This document shows positions 31,778-43,080 of a stretch of DNA of 64,000 nucleotides, piece by piece; position 1 is the stretch's first letter, and every line of letters starts with the position of its first letter. The notes under the pieces were generated by a model, which was given only the letters and a program-made list of their open reading frames with translations, did not search any database and was not told the DNA's origin. The DNA comes from Candidatus Micrarchaeota archaeon (GTDB taxonomy: Archaea; Micrarchaeota; Micrarchaeia; Anstonellales; Bilamarchaeaceae). The position numbers and the translations under genes are program-made. The stretch is from positions 18,233-82,232 of the forward strand of contig JBFMCO010000022.1 of NCBI GenBank assembly GCA_040754495.1, in the 5' to 3' direction.

Positions 31778-34700
31778 TCACAGGAAATCGGACAGCCCCA
31801 TCTGCTTGACCTTGTCGTCCTCGAATATGCTCTTTATCTCCCGCTCGACAAGCACCAGCCTCTGCTTCAGGTAGGAGGGAAGGTCGTAGCGGTCGCATAT
31901 GTCGCGGGATATCTCCAGGTATTTCTCGATTCCGCCCTTGTTGATTGTGAGGAGGAGGTTGCCCCCGCAGCGCGCGCACTTGCCCGCCAAGGGCACCCTG
32001 CGGAAGATGGTGTTGCACGAGACGCAGCGGAAGGTCTGCCTTGAGAAGGAGCGCAGGTTGCCGTAGAGGTCCGGGATGAAATGGCTCAGTATCAGGCGCT
32101 CGGCTGCATCGCGCCTATCAACCGGGCGGAGGCGGCCCTGGAGCCTGAACTGTATGTCTATCTTGTCCGGTATGGACTGCAGCTCCACGTAAGCCGTCCG
32201 TATGTTCCCGACATCAAGCGTGCCGCCCGGATGCGTGATGGGAAGCTCGTACTGCTCGTCGGTCCCCAGGACGTCCTTCACGGTCTTGAGCTTCACCTCG
32301 CCCGGCGGCGCGAAGCGCTCCGCGGCCTCGTAGAACTCGAGGGGGTAGCGCGAGACGATTTCGATGCAGTGCGCCTCGTCGTCCACCTCCTTGGGGTTTA
32401 TCTCTATGGAGAGCACGAGGGGCGCGTCCATGGTGCCCCCGCGCTTCTCGTCGAGGAACCTGCGGGAGAAGTTGATGAGGGCGTCCATCAGGAGCATCAC
32501 GCAGTCCTCGTCGCCGTCGCACCGAATCGTAAAGACCTGGTTGTTCAGAAGAACATTCTTTTCTTCCAGGGATTGGCCTTCCACATCGAGGCAGTATGCC
32601 GGAACTCCGTCTGTGAATTTCTCAATCGACCTGACCTTATCGAAAATATAGTCGCTTTGAGGCACGACCGTGAACAGCTTATTCTGGTATTTGATAAATC
32701 GCGCATCGCTCGACAGACCGTTTCTTCTCAGTTCGGACATTCGTTCTGCCTTATGCTTCACAGAGGGCGCGCAGATATTTGCAAAGGCATATAGGTCGGT
32801 GCCATAAAGACTAATGAATCTCTGCGAAAGCAAACGCGGGGTTTTTCCGAGCTCTTTATACCTTTCAAGGACCTTTTTGCCAGGCAAACGCGGTTTGGTT
32901 TTGCCATACCTGCAGAAGATTCCAAATCGCAAAAGCAGCGTGCCGAAATCCTCCAAAAGATTTTGTGAAACGGAGTAGAAGTGCATTCTCGGGGGGGTGG
33001 CGATTACACTTCCATCTCCGTCAAAATAAGCAGAAATAAAGGATTTGACAAGACGGTCAGGCAGTGAAAAGACGAGATTTGGAACCCGTTTCGTGTAGGC
33101 ATTTGAGCCGGTCTTCAAGACTTTATCAAACAGAAGGTGGATTATCCGGCTGCACATTGTTATCTGAGTGCCGTTCTCGCCAAGATAAGGGTTCGTCATA
33201 AAAACGCTTTTGATGGCGGCAATAAGCCGGTTCTGCATTATTTTATTGCAAACCCTGAAGCTGACCTGATAACACGAAGGGCTTCTCCGTGCATACCCCT
33301 CTGAGACGAAGTAGCCGAGAATGAGCATCAGGTCCTCATCTATTGGAATTCTTACCGGCAGCCCCAGGTTATCTCTCTTCATGGCAATTTTTGCATCCAT
33401 GGGCAAATCCTCAAAATTGCACACCCCCTCTTCCACAAGGATTTCGAAATGGGAGAGTGGAACGCGTCCATACCACCTGCTCGGAGTCCGTCTCTCGATT
33501 TTGTTGAGCGGCAGGATTCTGAGCAGCAAATCGCGATGATTATAGAATATTTTCTTGAAAAAATCCTTCGAGCGAAGTATTATCGCTTCTTTTTCTTCCT
33601 TTTTTAGTGGAGATAGGGCCTTTGCAAGATTGAGCACGCGGGAGTCGTCTATCGTGTGCGGATTGAATTTTATGCAAACTGGCAGATCGGAGCCTTCAGT
33701 CATATCTTTTGCCTGAACTGCGCTAAGCGCCCCTTTGTTGAGGCAAAGAATATTATGGTCGGGAGTCACGGTAATCTCCCGGTGGGTGGTTGTCGTAAGC
33801 TTAATCCATTTATCGGGAGCCTTTGCTCTGATGAAGCATTTGATTTTTTTACGGATTGTTTTGTGGGATTGGAGGTCTATTCCGAATGAGTAAAGAGTTC
33901 CGGGAACTTCCACTTTTTCTGTATAAGCATCAAGCCGCTTGACCCTGTCGGGGTATTTGGCAAACATTTCTTCGGTAACATCGCCCAGTGCCCTTTTGAT
34001 ATATTTTTTCTCGTGCTCATCAAATATGATAATCTCGGTTGCCGGATGGAAGCAGTTCCTTCTCTTCGCCGTGTGGAAATACGGGTGGCCGTAGCCGACG
34101 TTGGCCTTGTTGAAGCCCACGATGCGGCACAGGACGCCGGCGCTCGTGTGCGGCGAGAGCCCGACTGCCAGGTGGCCTATCAGGTCGTCCTTCGACTTCA
34201 CGTTGTAGAAGGGCTTCATGCCGTAGAGGTTGATTAGCATGTCGTCGATGAAATCCGCCACACGCATGAAGTACGCGGCGCCGTTCTCGGAGAGGACGAT
34301 GTCCTGGTGCCGCAGCGCCAGCGTCTGGGAGCCGCTCTCGAGGGGCTTGCCAAGATAATCCACGGCATAACCGAGCGCCCTGGCCCTATCGAGGCTTATG
34401 CCCACCTCGTCCGGCGTGAAATGCGTGAGCGGGATGTCTGTCGCGTCGAAGCGGGAGGTGCCGTCCCTGAAAACGTAGACGTCGTGCTTTGCGCGGAGGA
34501 AGCCCTTCTCCAGCCGCTCCGGGATGCGGATGGTGTTCGAGAGGCCCTTCACCCCCTTCACGTCTTCCGGGGAGCTCCCCACCCGGTCCTTCACGCGCTC
34601 GAAGAGCTCCATTATGTCTACGGGCCTGCGGTCGTAGGAGAGCGTCTTCATCTCGCAGTGGATTTCGTACTCGCAGATGCGGCCGCACTTCTGGCATATC

Positions 34701-36658
34701 CGCTCCTCGGCGGCCCTGCCGCCGCAGACGTCGCAGCGCCGGTAATAGCCGAGGCGGCGGCATTTTTCGCATCGCAGCCTGGCGAGCTCCAGGTTGATCG
34801 TCTTCTCGCCCTCGGCACCCCTGAGGGCACGGTGGACCTTGCTCAGGCTCCGGTTCTTGAACGAGCCGGTCGGGAAGAGGACGTGCGGCGAGCCGTCCAT
34901 CTTCCTTTCCTTTGCCTTCTCCGGCCTGCCCATGCGCGCTCCTATATAAGTAGGAGCCTTGGCCTTGATGCGTATCTGGGAGGCCGCGTTCACGATTTCG
35001 AGCGCGCCCTTTGCGGCATCGTATGCCGCTTCGAAGCGGGAGAGGTCTATGCGGCCATCCGAAAGCGCCCCCAGCGAAGAGAGGAGCGCGTACGCGTCGT
35101 CGCCGTCAAGGATGACATTCCCGTCGTGCACCCTGTGCTCCGCGAGGAGCTCCTCCAGGGCCCTTTTCGCAGGCGATGGCGGAAGGACGAGCGAGCGGAG
35201 CCTGCCATCGTGCATCTCCAGCTTCCCGCCCTTGAGCCAGTCCGCCAGGGATTTGAGCTGGTCCGGCGACAGGTCGTGCCAGTGGAATGTGTAGCGCGGA
35301 TGTAGAGGCACGCCATGCGTCCGCGAGAATGCAAAAAGCCCCGGCGCGTCCATGGCGGCAGGAGGCTGGACTCCCTTGGATTCGAGCTCGCGCTCCCACC
35401 ACTCTTCGCAGTAGCCGGATGGCATGAGGGGGTGGTTGGACTTGTGGAAATCGCCGTACGTGCAGAGCAGGTCGCCCAGGAAAAGGATTTCTTCCACCTC
35501 GTCCTTGATGCCGTACGACTCCTCCAGCGTCCGCACCTTCATCACGCGCCCGCTTTTGAGCTTCACGACCGGCGGCTCGAGCCCCTCGTGCGCCGCGACC
35601 ACGCAGCCCTTCCCGGGGCGCTCTATCTTCATGTGAGTCCCGTAGGCCAGGAAGTTGTCGAGCAGTATCATCGTGGCAGGATGGACGTCCTTGCCCATGA
35701 GGCAGGTGGTCTTGCTCCTGCCGTAGCGCAACCGGAACCCGCCCTTGGCCGAAGGGTGGCTGAAGACCGGCCTCCCCGCTACAAGCCCTTCCATGTAGGT
35801 CCAGTCCGGCTTCACCTCGACCTTGTCCGCCTTTTTCTTTATCTTGATGATTTTCTCGAGCCAGTCCCAGCCCAGCTTGAGCTTCTTGGCGTATTTGAGG
35901 AGCTTGGCGGCCTTCGCTGCCACGCCCTCGCACATGACGAGGGGCACGCCGCCGCGCACGCGGTCCGTCTCCACTCCCGGCACCCCGCGGTAGGTCGAGA
36001 CCTCGATTTCCTCGGTCGGGTCGCCGTCTATGCAGACCGGGCAGTTGGATGCTATCACGCGCACGTCGTCCTCCGGCGGCATGTACTGGAGGTGGGTTAC
36101 GCGCGTCTCGTATGTCGTTACCTCCTCGTAGTATCTTGCAATCTGGGAGTCCGTGGCGCGGTAGTCCCCCACGCTGCATACGCGGCGCGCGATGTCGGCA
36201 AGCACCAGGCTGAGGGCGGCCGCAGTGCCTCCTGCGCTCCGGATGGGGCCCGCATAATAGACCGCCACGTAGTCGCTCCCGTCCGGGTTGCGCTTTATCC
36301 TCACTTTCGCTATGCCCTCGGTCGGGGCGACCAGGACGCCCTCGGTGAGTATGCCGAGGCCCGTCCTCACCGCCTGTTCGATGAGAAGCTCCTTGGACGC
36401 CTTCATCAGCTCGCCGCCGGCGATTTTGCGTGCGATTTCGAACGCGATGTCCTCGCGGCCCATGCCACCTTTTTCCATGTCCCGGATGAGATCTGCCACT
36501 CCGGGGGGGCCGACGATACCCTCCACGCGGGCGGCGATGTCCTTGGCTATCTTGACTTCTATGTCGTCGCTCGGGTCATAGCCGAGCCTCCTTGCCTCTG
36601 AGGCGACGGCGTATGCCTTCTGCAGCCCCTCGCGGAGCGTCTCCACATACTCTCCCAT
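31778..36658 (-). CDS. polC: DNA polymerase II (PolD) large subunit DP2, interrupted by one intein
   Basis: 1,626 aa. Zn-finger run CEKCRRLGYYRRCDVCGG...CQKCG. Catalytic region GHPYFHTAKRRN|C...|CDGDEDCVMLLMDALINFSRRFLDEKRGGTMDAPLVL, which is contiguous in intein-free DP2. Confidence 0.9.
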   Translation of the reverse strand: MGEYVETLREGLQKAYAVASEARRLGYDPSDDIEVKIAKDIAARVEGIVGPPGVADLIRDMEKGGMGREDIAFEIARKIAGGELMKASKELLIEQAVRTGLGILTEGVLVAPTEGIAKVRIKRNPDGSDYVAVYYAGPIRSAGGTAAALSLVLADIARRVCSVGDYRATDSQIARYYEEVTTYETRVTHLQYMPPEDDVRVIASNCPVCIDGDPTEEIEVSTYRGVPGVETDRVRGGVPLVMCEGVAAKAAKLLKYAKKLKLGWDWLEKIIKIKKKADKVEVKPDWTYMEGLVAGRPVFSHPSAKGGFRLRYGRSKTTCLMGKDVHPATMILLDNFLAYGTHMKIERPGKGCVVAAHEGLEPPVVKLKSGRVMKVRTLEESYGIKDEVEEILFLGDLLCTYGDFHKSNHPLMPSGYCEEWWERELESKGVQPPAAMDAPGLFAFSRTHGVPLHPRYTFHWHDLSPDQLKSLADWLKGGKLEMHDGRLRSLVLPPSPAKRALEELLAEHRVHDGNVILDGDDAYALLSSLGALSDGRIDLSRFEAAYDAAKGALEIVNAASQIRIKAKAPTYIGARMGRPEKAKERKMDGSPHVLFPTGSFKNRSLSKVHRALRGAEGEKTINLELARLRCEKCRRLGYYRRCDVCGGRAAEERICQKCGRICEYEIHCEMKTLSYDRRPVDIMELFERVKDRVGSSPEDVKGVKGLSNTIRIPERLEKGFLRAKHDVYVFRDGTSRFDATDIPLTHFTPDEVGISLDRARALGYAVDYLGKPLESGSQTLALRHQDIVLSENGAAYFMRVADFIDDMLINLYGMKPFYNVKSKDDLIGHLAVGLSPHTSAGVLCRIVGFNKANVGYGHPYFHTAKRRNCFHPATEIIIFDEHEKKYIKRALGDVTEEMFAKYPDRVKRLDAYTEKVEVPGTLYSFGIDLQSHKTIRKKIKCFIRAKAPDKWIKLTTTTHREITVTPDHNILCLNKGALSAVQAKDMTEGSDLPVCIKFNPHTIDDSRVLNLAKALSPLKKEEKEAIILRSKDFFKKIFYNHRDLLLRILPLNKIERRTPSRWYGRVPLSHFEILVEEGVCNFEDLPMDAKIAMKRDNLGLPVRIPIDEDLMLILGYFVSEGYARRSPSCYQVSFRVCNKIMQNRLIAAIKSVFMTNPYLGENGTQITMCSRIIHLLFDKVLKTGSNAYTKRVPNLVFSLPDRLVKSFISAYFDGDGSVIATPPRMHFYSVSQNLLEDFGTLLLRFGIFCRYGKTKPRLPGKKVLERYKELGKTPRLLSQRFISLYGTDLYAFANICAPSVKHKAERMSELRRNGLSSDARFIKYQNKLFTVVPQSDYIFDKVRSIEKFTDGVPAYCLDVEGQSLEEKNVLLNNQVFTIRCDGDEDCVMLLMDALINFSRRFLDEKRGGTMDAPLVLSIEINPKEVDDEAHCIEIVSRYPLEFYEAAERFAPPGEVKLKTVKDVLGTDEQYELPITHPGGTLDVGNIRTAYVELQSIPDKIDIQFRLQGRLRPVDRRDAAERLILSHFIPDLYGNLRSFSRQTFRCVSCNTIFRRVPLAGKCARCGGNLLLTINKGGIEKYLEISRDICDRYDLPSYLKQRLVLVEREIKSIFEDDKVKQMGLSDFL
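32522..34054 (-). mobile_element. intein (511 aa) with LAGLIDADG homing-endonuclease domain in PolD DP2
   Basis: Starts CFHPATEIIIFD after KRRN. Block B ITVTPDHNIL. LAGLIDADG motifs LILGYFVSEGYA and FISAYFDGDGSV. Block F-like AYCLDVEG. Ends ...NVLLNNQVFTIR directly before CDGDED. Confidence 0.8.
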
Positions 36659-36745: not shown

Positions 36746-36960
36746 GCCGAGGTAGCTCAGTCGGCTAGAGTGCTCGACTCATAGGTAAAGTCCGATGAGT
36801 GATGAGGTCTGAGACCGATGATATTAGCGCACTCAACTGAGACATCGAGAGGTCGGGGATTCGAAACGGTCTCCTGCAGCCCGCATCCGGCATCCAGAAC
36901 CCGAAACGGCTGGTTGCTGGCGACTGGTTGCTGGAAACCGCGAACCTTCCCCCCTCGGCA
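36746..36960 (+). tRNA. tRNA(CAU), elongator Met or Ile2 type, with two introns (36784-36843 at 37/38; about 36867-36947 in the T-loop)
   Basis: Acceptor GCCGAGG/CCTCGGC + A. D-arm GCTC-AGTCGGCTA-GAGT. Anticodon stem CTCGA/TCGAG, loop CUCAUA[intron]A. T-arm GGGGA-TTCGAAA[intron]TCCCC. Followed by a T-run. Confidence 0.7.
36793..36840 (+). ncRNA. candidate box C/D guide RNA embedded in tRNA(CAU) intron 1
   Basis: GTGATGA (36799-36805, box C consensus), CTGA (36809-36812), CGATGAT (36816-36822), CTGA (36837-36840) in C-D'-C'-D order. A 12-14 nt spacer lies before box D. Confidence 0.45.
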
Positions 36961-37105
36961 TTTTTCCACTGGTTTACAGTTTCCGGTCCCGGGTTTTCAC
37001 TTGGGAAAAATGCCGGCCCTTGGAGCCGCAGCTCCAAGCGGACGGCAAGCAAAACATATATACGCTTTTTCTCCGATTGACATCCCGCGACCAAAAGGTG
37101 AGACT

Positions 37106-37345
37106 ATGGAACTTCGGAAATGCGAAAGCTGCGGCATGGCTATGGTAAGGCTCTCTGACTTCGGCGGCATGAAGAACGACAACAGGTACTGCAAGCACTG
37201 CGCTTACGACAACGGCGACCTGCGCCCCAGGCACGAGGTGCGCGAGGGGATGATACTCTACTACATGAAGACCAAGGGGAAGGACCGCAGGAGCGCGGAG
37301 GAGTACGTTGACGAAGTGATGGCCGGCCAGCCCGCCTGGCAGTAG
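37106..37345 (+). CDS. small zinc-ribbon protein (79 aa)
   Basis: ATG at 37106 after AAAGGTGAG. MELRKCESCGMAM...RYCKHCAY has two CxxC pairs. The upstream part of ORF 36818..37345 overlaps the tRNA and is rejected. Confidence 0.55.
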   Translation: MELRKCESCGMAMVRLSDFGGMKNDNRYCKHCAYDNGDLRPRHEVREGMILYYMKTKGKDRRSAEEYVDEVMAGQPAWQ

Positions 37346-42959: not shown

Positions 42960-42996
42960 GGATGCAGGAAAAAAATAGCGGGGGGTAGATTTGAAC
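42960..42996. repeat. 37-bp direct repeat, copy B (overlaps the intact initiator tRNA 3' end)
   Basis: Identical to 42817-42853. Covers tRNA positions from the T-loop to the discriminator (42976-42996) plus 16 nt downstream of the tRNA. Confidence 0.8.
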
Positions 42997-43080
42997 TACC
43001 GGTCCCTGGGTTATGAGCCCAGTGGGAACTCCAAGCTTCCCATAGGGCAAATTCTAGATGTTAGAATTTGTTACCCCGCT
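42976..43080 (-). tRNA. initiator-type tRNA-Met(CAU) with one intron (about 43042-43071) between position 9 and the D-stem
   Basis: Minus strand: AGCGGGG-TA-[ACAAATTCTAACATCTAGAATTTGCCCTAT]-GGGA-AGCTTGGAGT-TCCC-A-CTGGG-CTCATAA-CCCAG-GGACC-GGTAG-TTCAAAT-CTACC-CCCCGCT-A. A1:U72 and three G:C pairs next to the anticodon loop are archaeal initiator hallmarks. Confidence 0.75.

Follow-up and report, generated by a model that had tools for sequence, protein, structure and literature searches.

A conserved single-kink-turn element and putative cis guide for wobble C34 in the anticodon-loop intron of a micrarchaeal tRNA-Met-type gene

We analyzed a tRNA gene with a CAU anticodon in a 64,000-nucleotide (nt) stretch of a Candidatus Micrarchaeota genome (contig JBFMCO010000022.1, positions 18,233 to 82,232; hereafter, the window). 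The anticodon loop of this gene is interrupted by a 60-nt intron (intron 1, 36784 to 36843), which an initial annotation of this DNA had pointed out and which we confirmed to lie between A37 and A38. Based on the sequence anatomy, conservation, covariation, fixed spacing, and predicted energetics of this intron, we consider it reasonably likely that intron 1 is a minimal, self-targeting guide of the box C/D type, with a single kink-turn, for making Cm34, the 2'-O-methylated wobble cytidine, on the unspliced precursor, which would then refold and be spliced. On this reading, intron 1 is another intron-borne C/D-type guide in a DPANN tRNA-Met, a kind already known. Its anatomy, with one C'/D'-type kink-turn and a guide that would address C34 of the precursor in cis, is better defined here than in the literature available to us. 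The parts of exon 1 and intron 1 are as follows.

36746 to 36783, + strand: exon 1, tRNA positions 1 to 37, read from the sequence
36768 to 36773, 36778 to 36783, and 36780, + strand: within exon 1, G22 to C27, C32 to A37, and C34, respectively
36784 to 36843, + strand: intron 1, 60 nt, at the canonical site between A37 and A38 (37/38); bears the guide-like element
36792 to 36800, + strand: D'-type guide CC-G-AUGAG-U, found by RNAalifold, by covariation, and in the unconstrained minimum free energy (MFE) fold of the precursor
36802 to 36805, + strand: D'-like box AUGA, the non-bulged strand of the predicted kink-turn; G36804 and A36805 are the partners in the sheared pairs
36806 to 36816, + strand: hairpin GGUC-UGA-GACC, the canonical (C) stem of the predicted kink-turn
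36817 to 36824, + strand: C'-like box, the bulged strand, with bulge GAU at 36817 to 36819 and sheared GA at 36820 to 36821
36829 to 36834, + strand: GCACUC, the complement of exon G22 to C27, at the place of a D guide; paired in the MFE fold
36837 to 36843, + strand: CUGAGAC, in which UGAG (36838 to 36841) is the 3' strand of the 4-bp central helix of the bulge-helix-bulge (BHB) motif and pairs with C32 to A35

To compare introns, we collected tRNA-Met-type genes using patterns that specified only the exons and left the intron sequence free. A scan of one genome per species returned at least 120 loci, including some false hits to bacterial tRNAs, and a scan of Joint Genome Institute (JGI) metagenomes using the window's own anticodon-arm exons returned 30 loci. 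The pooled sets contained 31 distinct introns with exons identical to those of the window and, among the matches listed, 64 distinct introns bearing the motif described below. Because these introns were drawn from the matches listed, the phylogenetic distribution of the motif is a sample and not a census. The gene for the PolD large subunit, DP2, adjoins the tRNA gene in at least 24 related loci (67 to 88% amino acid identity, with several matches ending at contig ends), and we therefore treat the compared introns as orthologous.

Across the 64 introns, the same elements occur in the same order: NUGAG, U, one free base, NUGA, a hairpin, a 3-nt bulge, GA, and mostly a pyrimidine. The strict motif was present in 69 of 112 archaeal-type tRNA-Met introns among the matches listed, where shuffled sequences predict 0.055. 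Given the 5' anchor, the hairpin and NNN-GA were found in 69 of 75 introns, with 3.5 expected. The hairpin is built from 29 distinct stems and 42 loops, and its covariation (0.694) exceeded that of shuffles (0.137; 0 of 500) and that obtained with partners slid (≤0.098), with 23 compensatory cells. RNAalifold, run unguided on 31 orthologous precursor segments, found the same hairpin, with the third pair being CG in 18, UA in 6, AU in 6, and GC in 1.

The GA of AUGA (36802 to 36805) abuts this hairpin, and we therefore assigned the box to the non-bulged strand of the kink-turn as the equivalent of box D'. Its GA is invariant, the full box being AUGA in 43 introns, CUGA in 7, UUGA in 6, and other sequences that likewise end in GA in 8. 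On the opposite strand, the bulge reads N-R-U (GAU 42, AAU 13, UAU 6, UGU 2, and UGA 1), and the GA that follows is again invariant. A 3-nt bulge is the sole register that fits all 64 introns. We rejected a symmetric UGAUGA/GAUGAU helix with double tandem G-A pairs and no bulge, which fits only 45 of them. At the sequence level, the element thus shares with L7Ae-binding kink-turns the Watson-Crick C-stem, the 3-nt bulge, the tandem sheared G-A/A-G pairs, and a pyrimidine-pyrimidine third pair, in which U36822 faces U36803. It also has the internal C'/D' motif, in a variant form where a closed stem replaces the loop and AUGA replaces CUGA. We read the conserved element as a kink-turn of the C'/D' type as predicted from these features. 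A kink-turn alone does not imply methylation.

A covariance model built without the window scored 36792 to 36823 at 32.3 bits (E = 7.6e-6), its sole significant hit in the 64 kb. When applied to 1.08 Mb of fetched loci, the model returned 70 hits, one per locus, and every hit checked against pattern or seed coordinates lay in a tRNA-Met intron.

The guide lies directly upstream of this element. U36800 to A36795 pairs with A31 to U36 of the exon, G36794 faces A37, and C36793 and C36792 pair with the first two bases of the intron, G36784 and G36785. All 64 introns carry NUGAG-U at this place (AUGAG 55, UUGAG 6, GUGAG 3), and its U is invariant. The unguided RNAalifold run recovered both the duplex of A31-U36 with UGAGUA and the two pairs between the intron start and CC. 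These junction pairs covary (GC 25, AU 2, CG 1, and UA 1; tallied as the first two intron bases with their partners, GG:CC 25, AG:CU 2, and UG:CA 1). The duplex thus extends from exon into intron, with covarying pairs at the boundary, and only the precursor before splicing can therefore be its substrate.

Counting upstream from AUGA (36802 to 36805), N+1 is the variable G36801 and N+2 is the invariant U36800, which pairs with A31. They are followed by G36799 opposite C32 (N+3), A36798 opposite U33 (N+4), and G36797 opposite C34 (N+5). The distance between guide and box is identical in 64 of 64 introns, and other spacings never occur. Because this spacing is fixed, the rule that the target lies opposite the fifth nucleotide from box D or D' lands on C34 in every case, through a duplex shorter than is typical. 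The wobble C34 of its own tRNA is the likely target of the intron 1 guide. The initial annotation had also applied the fifth-nucleotide rule and reached C34, which was correct, but it relied on the wrong copy of AUGAG and the wrong D' box; the guide is AUGAG at 36795 to 36799 and not the bases at 36802 to 36806. The CGAUGAG at 36793 to 36799, which it had offered as an alternative box C, is the guide itself, and G36794 within it varies (G 24, U 3, A 2, C 2).

Pairing with the guide is predicted to compete with splicing. The 3-nt bulges of the BHB are formed by U36-A37-G36784 and A36842-C36843-A38, as in a bulge-helix-bulge intron at 37/38, and relatives have UGAG, UAAG, UGGG, CGGG, or CGAG at the 4-mer of the central helix. 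Since both structures use C32 to A35, the guide-paired fold and the cloverleaf-plus-BHB fold are mutually exclusive. For the window precursor without the second intron of the gene (intron 2, described below), the guide-paired fold was the unconstrained MFE structure (-50.5 kcal/mol) and comprised the guide duplex, the hairpin, and a helix between G22-C27 and GCACUC (36829 to 36834). The constrained, splicing-competent BHB fold of the same precursor reached -45.5 kcal/mol. Among the local MFE structures of the 64 introns, 46 contained the guide duplex and 8 the BHB form.

The initial annotation had discounted the complementarity between GCACUC and GAGUGC as being only 6 bp long. We found the pairing of this tail segment with tRNA positions 22 to 28 to be conserved, with no fixed box D register. 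For each of 30 relatives that share the exon, the best duplex between tail and exon includes G24 to G26, and the mean length of these duplexes is 5.50, compared with 4.21 ± 0.17 in shuffles (0 of 500). The tail variants GCGCUCU, GUGCUCU, GCAUUCU, and GUACUCU represent transitions that keep the exon pairing, and lineages with the exon sequence AGAGCGCC carry the tail GGCGCUCU instead. Depending on the orthologue, the tail element lies 6 to 12 nt from the 3' end or CUGA, and it is not followed by a conserved box D. The tail was rejected as an N+5 methylation guide, as its predicted target shifts among G24, U25, and C27 depending on the orthologue. Given the varying distance and the lack of a conserved box D, the orthologues gave no sign of a second guide for a second methylation, such as that of Um39 in tRNA-Trp. 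The tail may be a structural pairing that opens the D and anticodon arms in the guide-paired fold and not a second guide; this is the least secure part of our interpretation.

The tail showed no overall signal of pairing with the intron's own guide region (mean 4.9, compared with 4.6 in shuffles); such pairing was confined to some introns of the Nanoarchaeota type. In five loci labelled Nanoarchaeota, Woesearchaeota, or Methanosarcinales (L047, L086, L005, L057, and L080), the tail holds a copy of the anticodon loop, ACUCAUAU or CUCAA, that complements the intron's own guide, over up to 9 bp in L047. This pairing may be self-inhibiting or a decoy; it is absent in the window's subgroup. As another use of the 3' end, we considered a second kink-turn formed by the 3' CUGAG and exon G22-A23 on a GCNC stem. 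It fits only the subclass "...CUCUGAGAA", and we dropped it because it fits neither the window nor the AGCACUGAGAA class.

Protein binding, methylation, and the order of events may be envisaged as follows. L7Ae would bind the kink-turn of intron 1, Nop5-fibrillarin would be recruited, and C34 would be 2'-O-methylated to Cm34 on the unspliced precursor. Pairing of intron bases 36829 to 36834 with exon positions 22 to 27 may keep the D and anticodon arms open. The precursor would then refold to the cloverleaf and BHB, where C32 to A35 would now be paired with UGAG (36838 to 36841), and the splicing endonuclease and ligase would excise the intron.

Several points weigh against a methylation guide. 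Intron 1 has one kink-turn only, and the orthologues lack the conserved terminal box C/D pair and the terminal stem of a canonical dual guide. Some archaeal systems need both motifs for efficient methylation. The D'-like box is AUGA and not CUGA, the C'-like box matches RUGAUGA at 5 of 7 positions, and the guide pairs over a short stretch of 6 bp, one mismatch, and 2 bp, compared with the 10 to 12 bp of typical guides. Searches with phmmer and tblastn for fibrillarin, Nop5, and L7Ae found none of these genes in the 64-kb window or the fetched loci, which is a weak test, and we found no literature on these genes in Micrarchaeota. A strict C/D regular expression and Rfam detected no other C/D small RNA (sRNA) in the 64-kb window. 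The compared sequences are kin, which inflates the shuffle statistics given above. The seed alignment of the hairpin was picked with a paired-stem filter, so that its 100% pairing is by construction and only the covariation is informative. Lastly, the host could in principle be tRNA-Ile2(CAU) instead. C34 of tRNA-Ile2 becomes agmatidine, and therefore Cm34 would not be expected there.

The initial annotation had described a canonical dual-guide box C/D sRNA, with box C at 36799 to 36805 or at 36793 to 36799, D' at 36809 to 36812, C' at 36816 to 36822, D at 36837 to 36840, and a guide ATTAGCGCACTCAA whose target would lie elsewhere, for example, in rRNA. Every string is where it was placed (GTGATGA, 36799 to 36805; CTGA, 36809 to 36812 and 36837 to 36840; CGATGAT, 36816 to 36822; CGATGAG, 36793 to 36799; and GAGTGC, 36768 to 36773). 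The four boxes do stand in order and at near-canonical spacing in the window's own intron, a layout that is more than chance because 0 of 200,000 mononucleotide shuffles of the intron reproduced it. CUGA (36809 to 36812) and GAUGA (36817 to 36821) could even make a good K-loop in this one sequence, one that also points to C34, and weak matches to Rfam C/D families span the intron. However, the assignment fails across the 31 distinct orthologous introns. The supposed D' box CUGA forms the loop of the covarying hairpin and occurs at this place in 1 of 64 introns, that of the window alone; elsewhere, the stem bears GNRA-type and other loops. What had been taken for an exact RUGAUGA consists of the final guide bases and the D'-like AUGA, the G of box C varies, and there is no terminal stem. 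The C' box CGAUGAU is real but is to be read as the C of the stem, the GAU bulge, the sheared GA, and U, and its first G is not conserved. CUGA at the 3' end is found in 16 of 31 orthologues (20 of 64 introns overall), overlaps the UGAG of the splicing helix, and lies at an inconstant distance from the D-guide region. A scan with C/D models, which had been suggested as a check, gave only 13 bits for sR9 and 15.5 bits for SNORD41, far under the gathering thresholds of 36 to 41. Comparison of the orthologues therefore upholds a box C/D-type element with a conserved kink-turn core and guide and contradicts the terminal boxes C and D and the D' CUGA, and we consider a canonical dual guide very improbable. 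Part of the resemblance to boxes is forced, in that any sequence complementary to a CAU loop will include AUGA, and the strand that pairs with CUCA in the BHB looks like CUGA. Two of the four boxes are explained in this way, as they would be in an ordinary tRNA intron with a chance resemblance to box motifs: GAUGAG (36794 to 36799) is the guide and CUGA (36837 to 36840) overlaps UGAG. But the kink-turn core is conserved, covarying, and specific to this intron, which refutes chance for the core motif, and the shuffles never returned the four-box layout. Chance can be all but dismissed.

The remaining explanations accept the element and differ as to what it does. The kink-turn might have a structural or chaperone role in which it binds L7Ae or some other K-turn protein, with AUGAGU masking the anticodon loop and no methyl transfer, and thereby control precursor folding, the timing of splicing, or the stability or circularization of the intron. 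A single kink-turn without a conserved terminal C/D motif and a short guide duplex would suit such a role, as would two exclusive folds of which the guide-paired one is predicted to be more stable, in the manner of a splicing switch. It is also general knowledge that L7Ae binds kink-turns in several non-C/D archaeal RNAs. Yet masking leaves unexplained both the invariant 2-nt spacer that places C34 at N+5 in all 64 introns and the box-like NUGA and RUGAU flanks, and in those other archaea that have been examined, elongator tRNA-Met depends on a guide for its Cm34. We regard a purely structural role as unlikely, though worth keeping in view. Alternatively, the excised intron, possibly circular, could act in trans on other pre-tRNA-Met molecules, on other CAU tRNAs (initiator or Ile2), or on rRNA, following the model of the stable intron RNA of Nanoarchaeum equitans. 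The ribonucleoprotein (RNP) of the tRNA-Trp intron is reported to act in trans, and the anticodon loop CUCAUAA is common to the initiator-like tRNA at 42976 to 43080. Against this, the duplex reaches the first two intron bases with covariation, which points to unspliced pre-tRNA-Met as the substrate and not to mature or other tRNAs, and the tail complements its own exon at positions 22 to 28, covarying across lineages. Trans action of the excised intron appears quite improbable; if the intron acted on a second molecule of the same precursor, sequence alone would not distinguish this from cis action.

The closest known relative of the window's element is the intron RNA of N. equitans tRNA-Met. 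This elongator tRNA-Met has a 66-nt intron that was reported to accumulate as a stable RNA, in which a consensus box D, a six-GC hairpin, and, in mid-intron, a degenerate box C were recognized (Randau 2012, Genome Biol 13:R63; PMC3491384). It was described, as a single case, as a "potential C/D box sRNA," and no target or cis mechanism was named (PMC3491384). The view of the initial annotation that no intron-borne guide had been described in a CAU tRNA is therefore outdated. The two introns share the type of host gene, the 37/38 position, and a DPANN host. Their layouts agree when compared by verbal description, and their motifs are presumably the same. They differ in that the window's lineage is Micrarchaeota-like and its host tRNA has a second intron.

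The initial annotation rightly drew analogies to the tRNA-Trp intron and to haloarchaeal sR-tMet. In Euryarchaeota, the pre-tRNA-Trp intron guides Cm34 and Um39 (Clouet d'Orval 2001 and Singh 2004, as summarized in reviews). Like intron 1 as read here, it is a 37/38 intron that guides its own tRNA, has wobble C34 as a target, and alternates between exclusive guide and splicing folds. Unlike intron 1, it has all of boxes C, D', C', and D, forms a complete dual guide, and directs two methylations. By comparison, the window's intron keeps only a C'/D'-type kink-turn, has a closed hairpin in place of the K-loop and a duplex of 6+2 bp, and the N+5 register of its second segment, directed to positions 22 to 28, is not fixed. 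Haloarchaea (sR-tMet; Joardar 2011) and humans (SNORD97/SCARNA97) use separate guides to make Cm34 in elongator tRNA-Met, and Pyrococcus has a predicted box C/D guide for it, also separate. sR-tMet is reported to act on the intron-containing precursor. These trans guides address the same nucleotide of the same tRNA; in contrast to them, the window's guide is inside its substrate's own intron. Tandem sheared G-A pairs are said to form the basis of an unusual C'/D' motif in the haloarchaeal guide.

The remaining parts of the host gene are as follows.

36746 to 36960, + strand: complete CAU tRNA gene of three exons and two introns, with G1-C72 and A73; elongator-Met-like
36844 to 36865, + strand: exon 2, tRNA positions 38 to 59
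36866 to 36946, + strand: intron 2, 81 nt, in the T-loop at position 59/60, with a predicted fold containing an hBHBh' motif
36947 to 36960, + strand: exon 3, comprising U60, the T-stem 3' strand UCCCC, the acceptor 3' strand CCUCGGC, and A73
36961 to 36965, + strand: T-run terminator directly 3' of the tRNA gene

The gene is thus not complete by about 36880, as had been stated, but extends through the T-loop intron to 36960. Removal of both introns in silico gave a 74-nt cloverleaf with the anticodon loop CUCAUAA, and ARAGORN identified near-spliced candidates of the gene as tRNA-Met. On unspliced DNA, ARAGORN found nothing at 36746 to 36960, and Rfam at the gathering threshold found no tRNA or C/D family there; a permissive Rfam search gave a broken 17-bit tRNA match. 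The gene was missed because it has two introns. The hBHBh' motif of intron 2 consists of the T-stem, a UUCG/CGAA central helix, two 3-nt bulges, and a CGGU/ACCG outer helix. Intron 2 also contains an 11-nt direct repeat, CTGGTTGCTGG, at 36910 to 36920 and 36924 to 36934. Most syntenic relatives lack a T-loop intron; L133, L140, L123, L143/L147, and L150 have an apparent T-loop insertion, seemingly at the same site.

With G1-C72 and an anticodon stem lacking GGG/CCC, the tRNA is not an initiator, and an initiator-like gene sits elsewhere in the window. We read the tRNA as an elongator tRNA-Met by analogy, from its anticodon and from other intron-bearing elongator tRNA-Met genes (N. equitans, haloarchaea). 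The initiator-like CAU tRNA (42976 to 43080, - strand, 105 nt) has A1-U72 and a GGG/CCC anticodon stem. Straight after its 5' acceptor strand is an insertion of about 30 nt with a 9-bp hairpin, probably a non-canonical intron, and the Rfam match to this gene covers model positions 10 to 63 only. The sole ARAGORN call in the window is an 80-nt "tRNA-Gly(CCC)" (461 to 540, + strand) with a good T-arm, GAGGG TTCAAAT CCCTC, and an odd 5' half, which may be a mis-parsed intron-bearing tRNA.

The intron 1 motif occurs in metagenome-assembled genomes (MAGs) labelled Nanoarchaeota (L047, L086, and L112, as in the window), Woesearchaeota, Nanohaloarchaea, Aenigmatarchaeota, and Micrarchaeota, and in some labelled Methanosarcinales, a label that is unverified. 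It is absent from the introns of Thermoplasmata, Thermoproteota, Bathyarchaeia, and Asgard MAGs among the matches listed. The tRNA-Met introns of seven Thermoplasmata-labelled loci (L001, L004, L033, L075, L089, L100, and L103) lack the kink-turn motif and have a different, T-arm-like conserved core, AAGGGUUCGAAAAA, and the 3' end GCGCUAAGA. Those of eight Asgard-labelled loci (L010, L039, L044, L067, L073, L081, L085, and L108) start with AUCU, contain AAGGGCUAG or AAGGGUUAG, and, close to the 3' splice site, finish with CCUCAGAUG(A/C)G. They are a separate intron family that also has an anticodon-complementary (G)AUGAG.

The closest public relatives of the window among the matches listed are MAGs labelled Candidatus Micrarchaeota. 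In L115, DP2 is 88% identical over the first 400 residues and gene order is as in the window. The GC content of the window is about 0.60, and its proteome is not acidic. The DP2 gene (31778 to 36658, - strand) starts about 90 bp from the tRNA gene, in divergent orientation, and carries an intein with a LAGLIDADG domain at about residues 925 to 1362. A zinc-ribbon gene lies downstream of the DP2/tRNA-Met pair in about 13 loci. A mechanically called open reading frame (36818 to 37345, + strand) overlaps the tRNA gene; relatives conserve only its C-terminal part, from about 37040 (Zn_ribbon_2), and the real Zn_ribbon_2 gene therefore begins downstream of the tRNA. In L122, L142, L143/L147, and L150, no normal acceptor and D-arm precede the 3' strand of the D-stem, which points to one more intron or to a gene that is split or permuted.

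In organisms ranging from archaea to humans, guide RNPs make the Cm34 of elongator tRNA-Met, but only a minority of archaeal lineages have a known guide. If the intron supplies the guide in cis, this would explain why reduced DPANN genomes keep an intron of 45 to 65 nt in this one tRNA. As a tentative generalization, which we do not yet hold to be probable, the elongator tRNA-Met intron of DPANN archaea may be kept as a minimal, self-targeting guide RNP with one kink-turn, in which a cis guide of 6 to 8 bp suffices and methylation is coupled to splicing. If so, no smaller natural box C/D guide would be known, and the element would be a natural C/D RNP with a single kink-turn (a "half-mer"), and hence a test case for minimal RNPs. 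The covariance-model signature could find intron-bearing tRNA-Met genes that tRNA scanners overlook, as happened here. The model predicts methylation before splicing and names the specific bases involved. If it is true, the favored guide-paired fold must resolve before the BHB forms, which would constitute a built-in checkpoint for modification before splicing.

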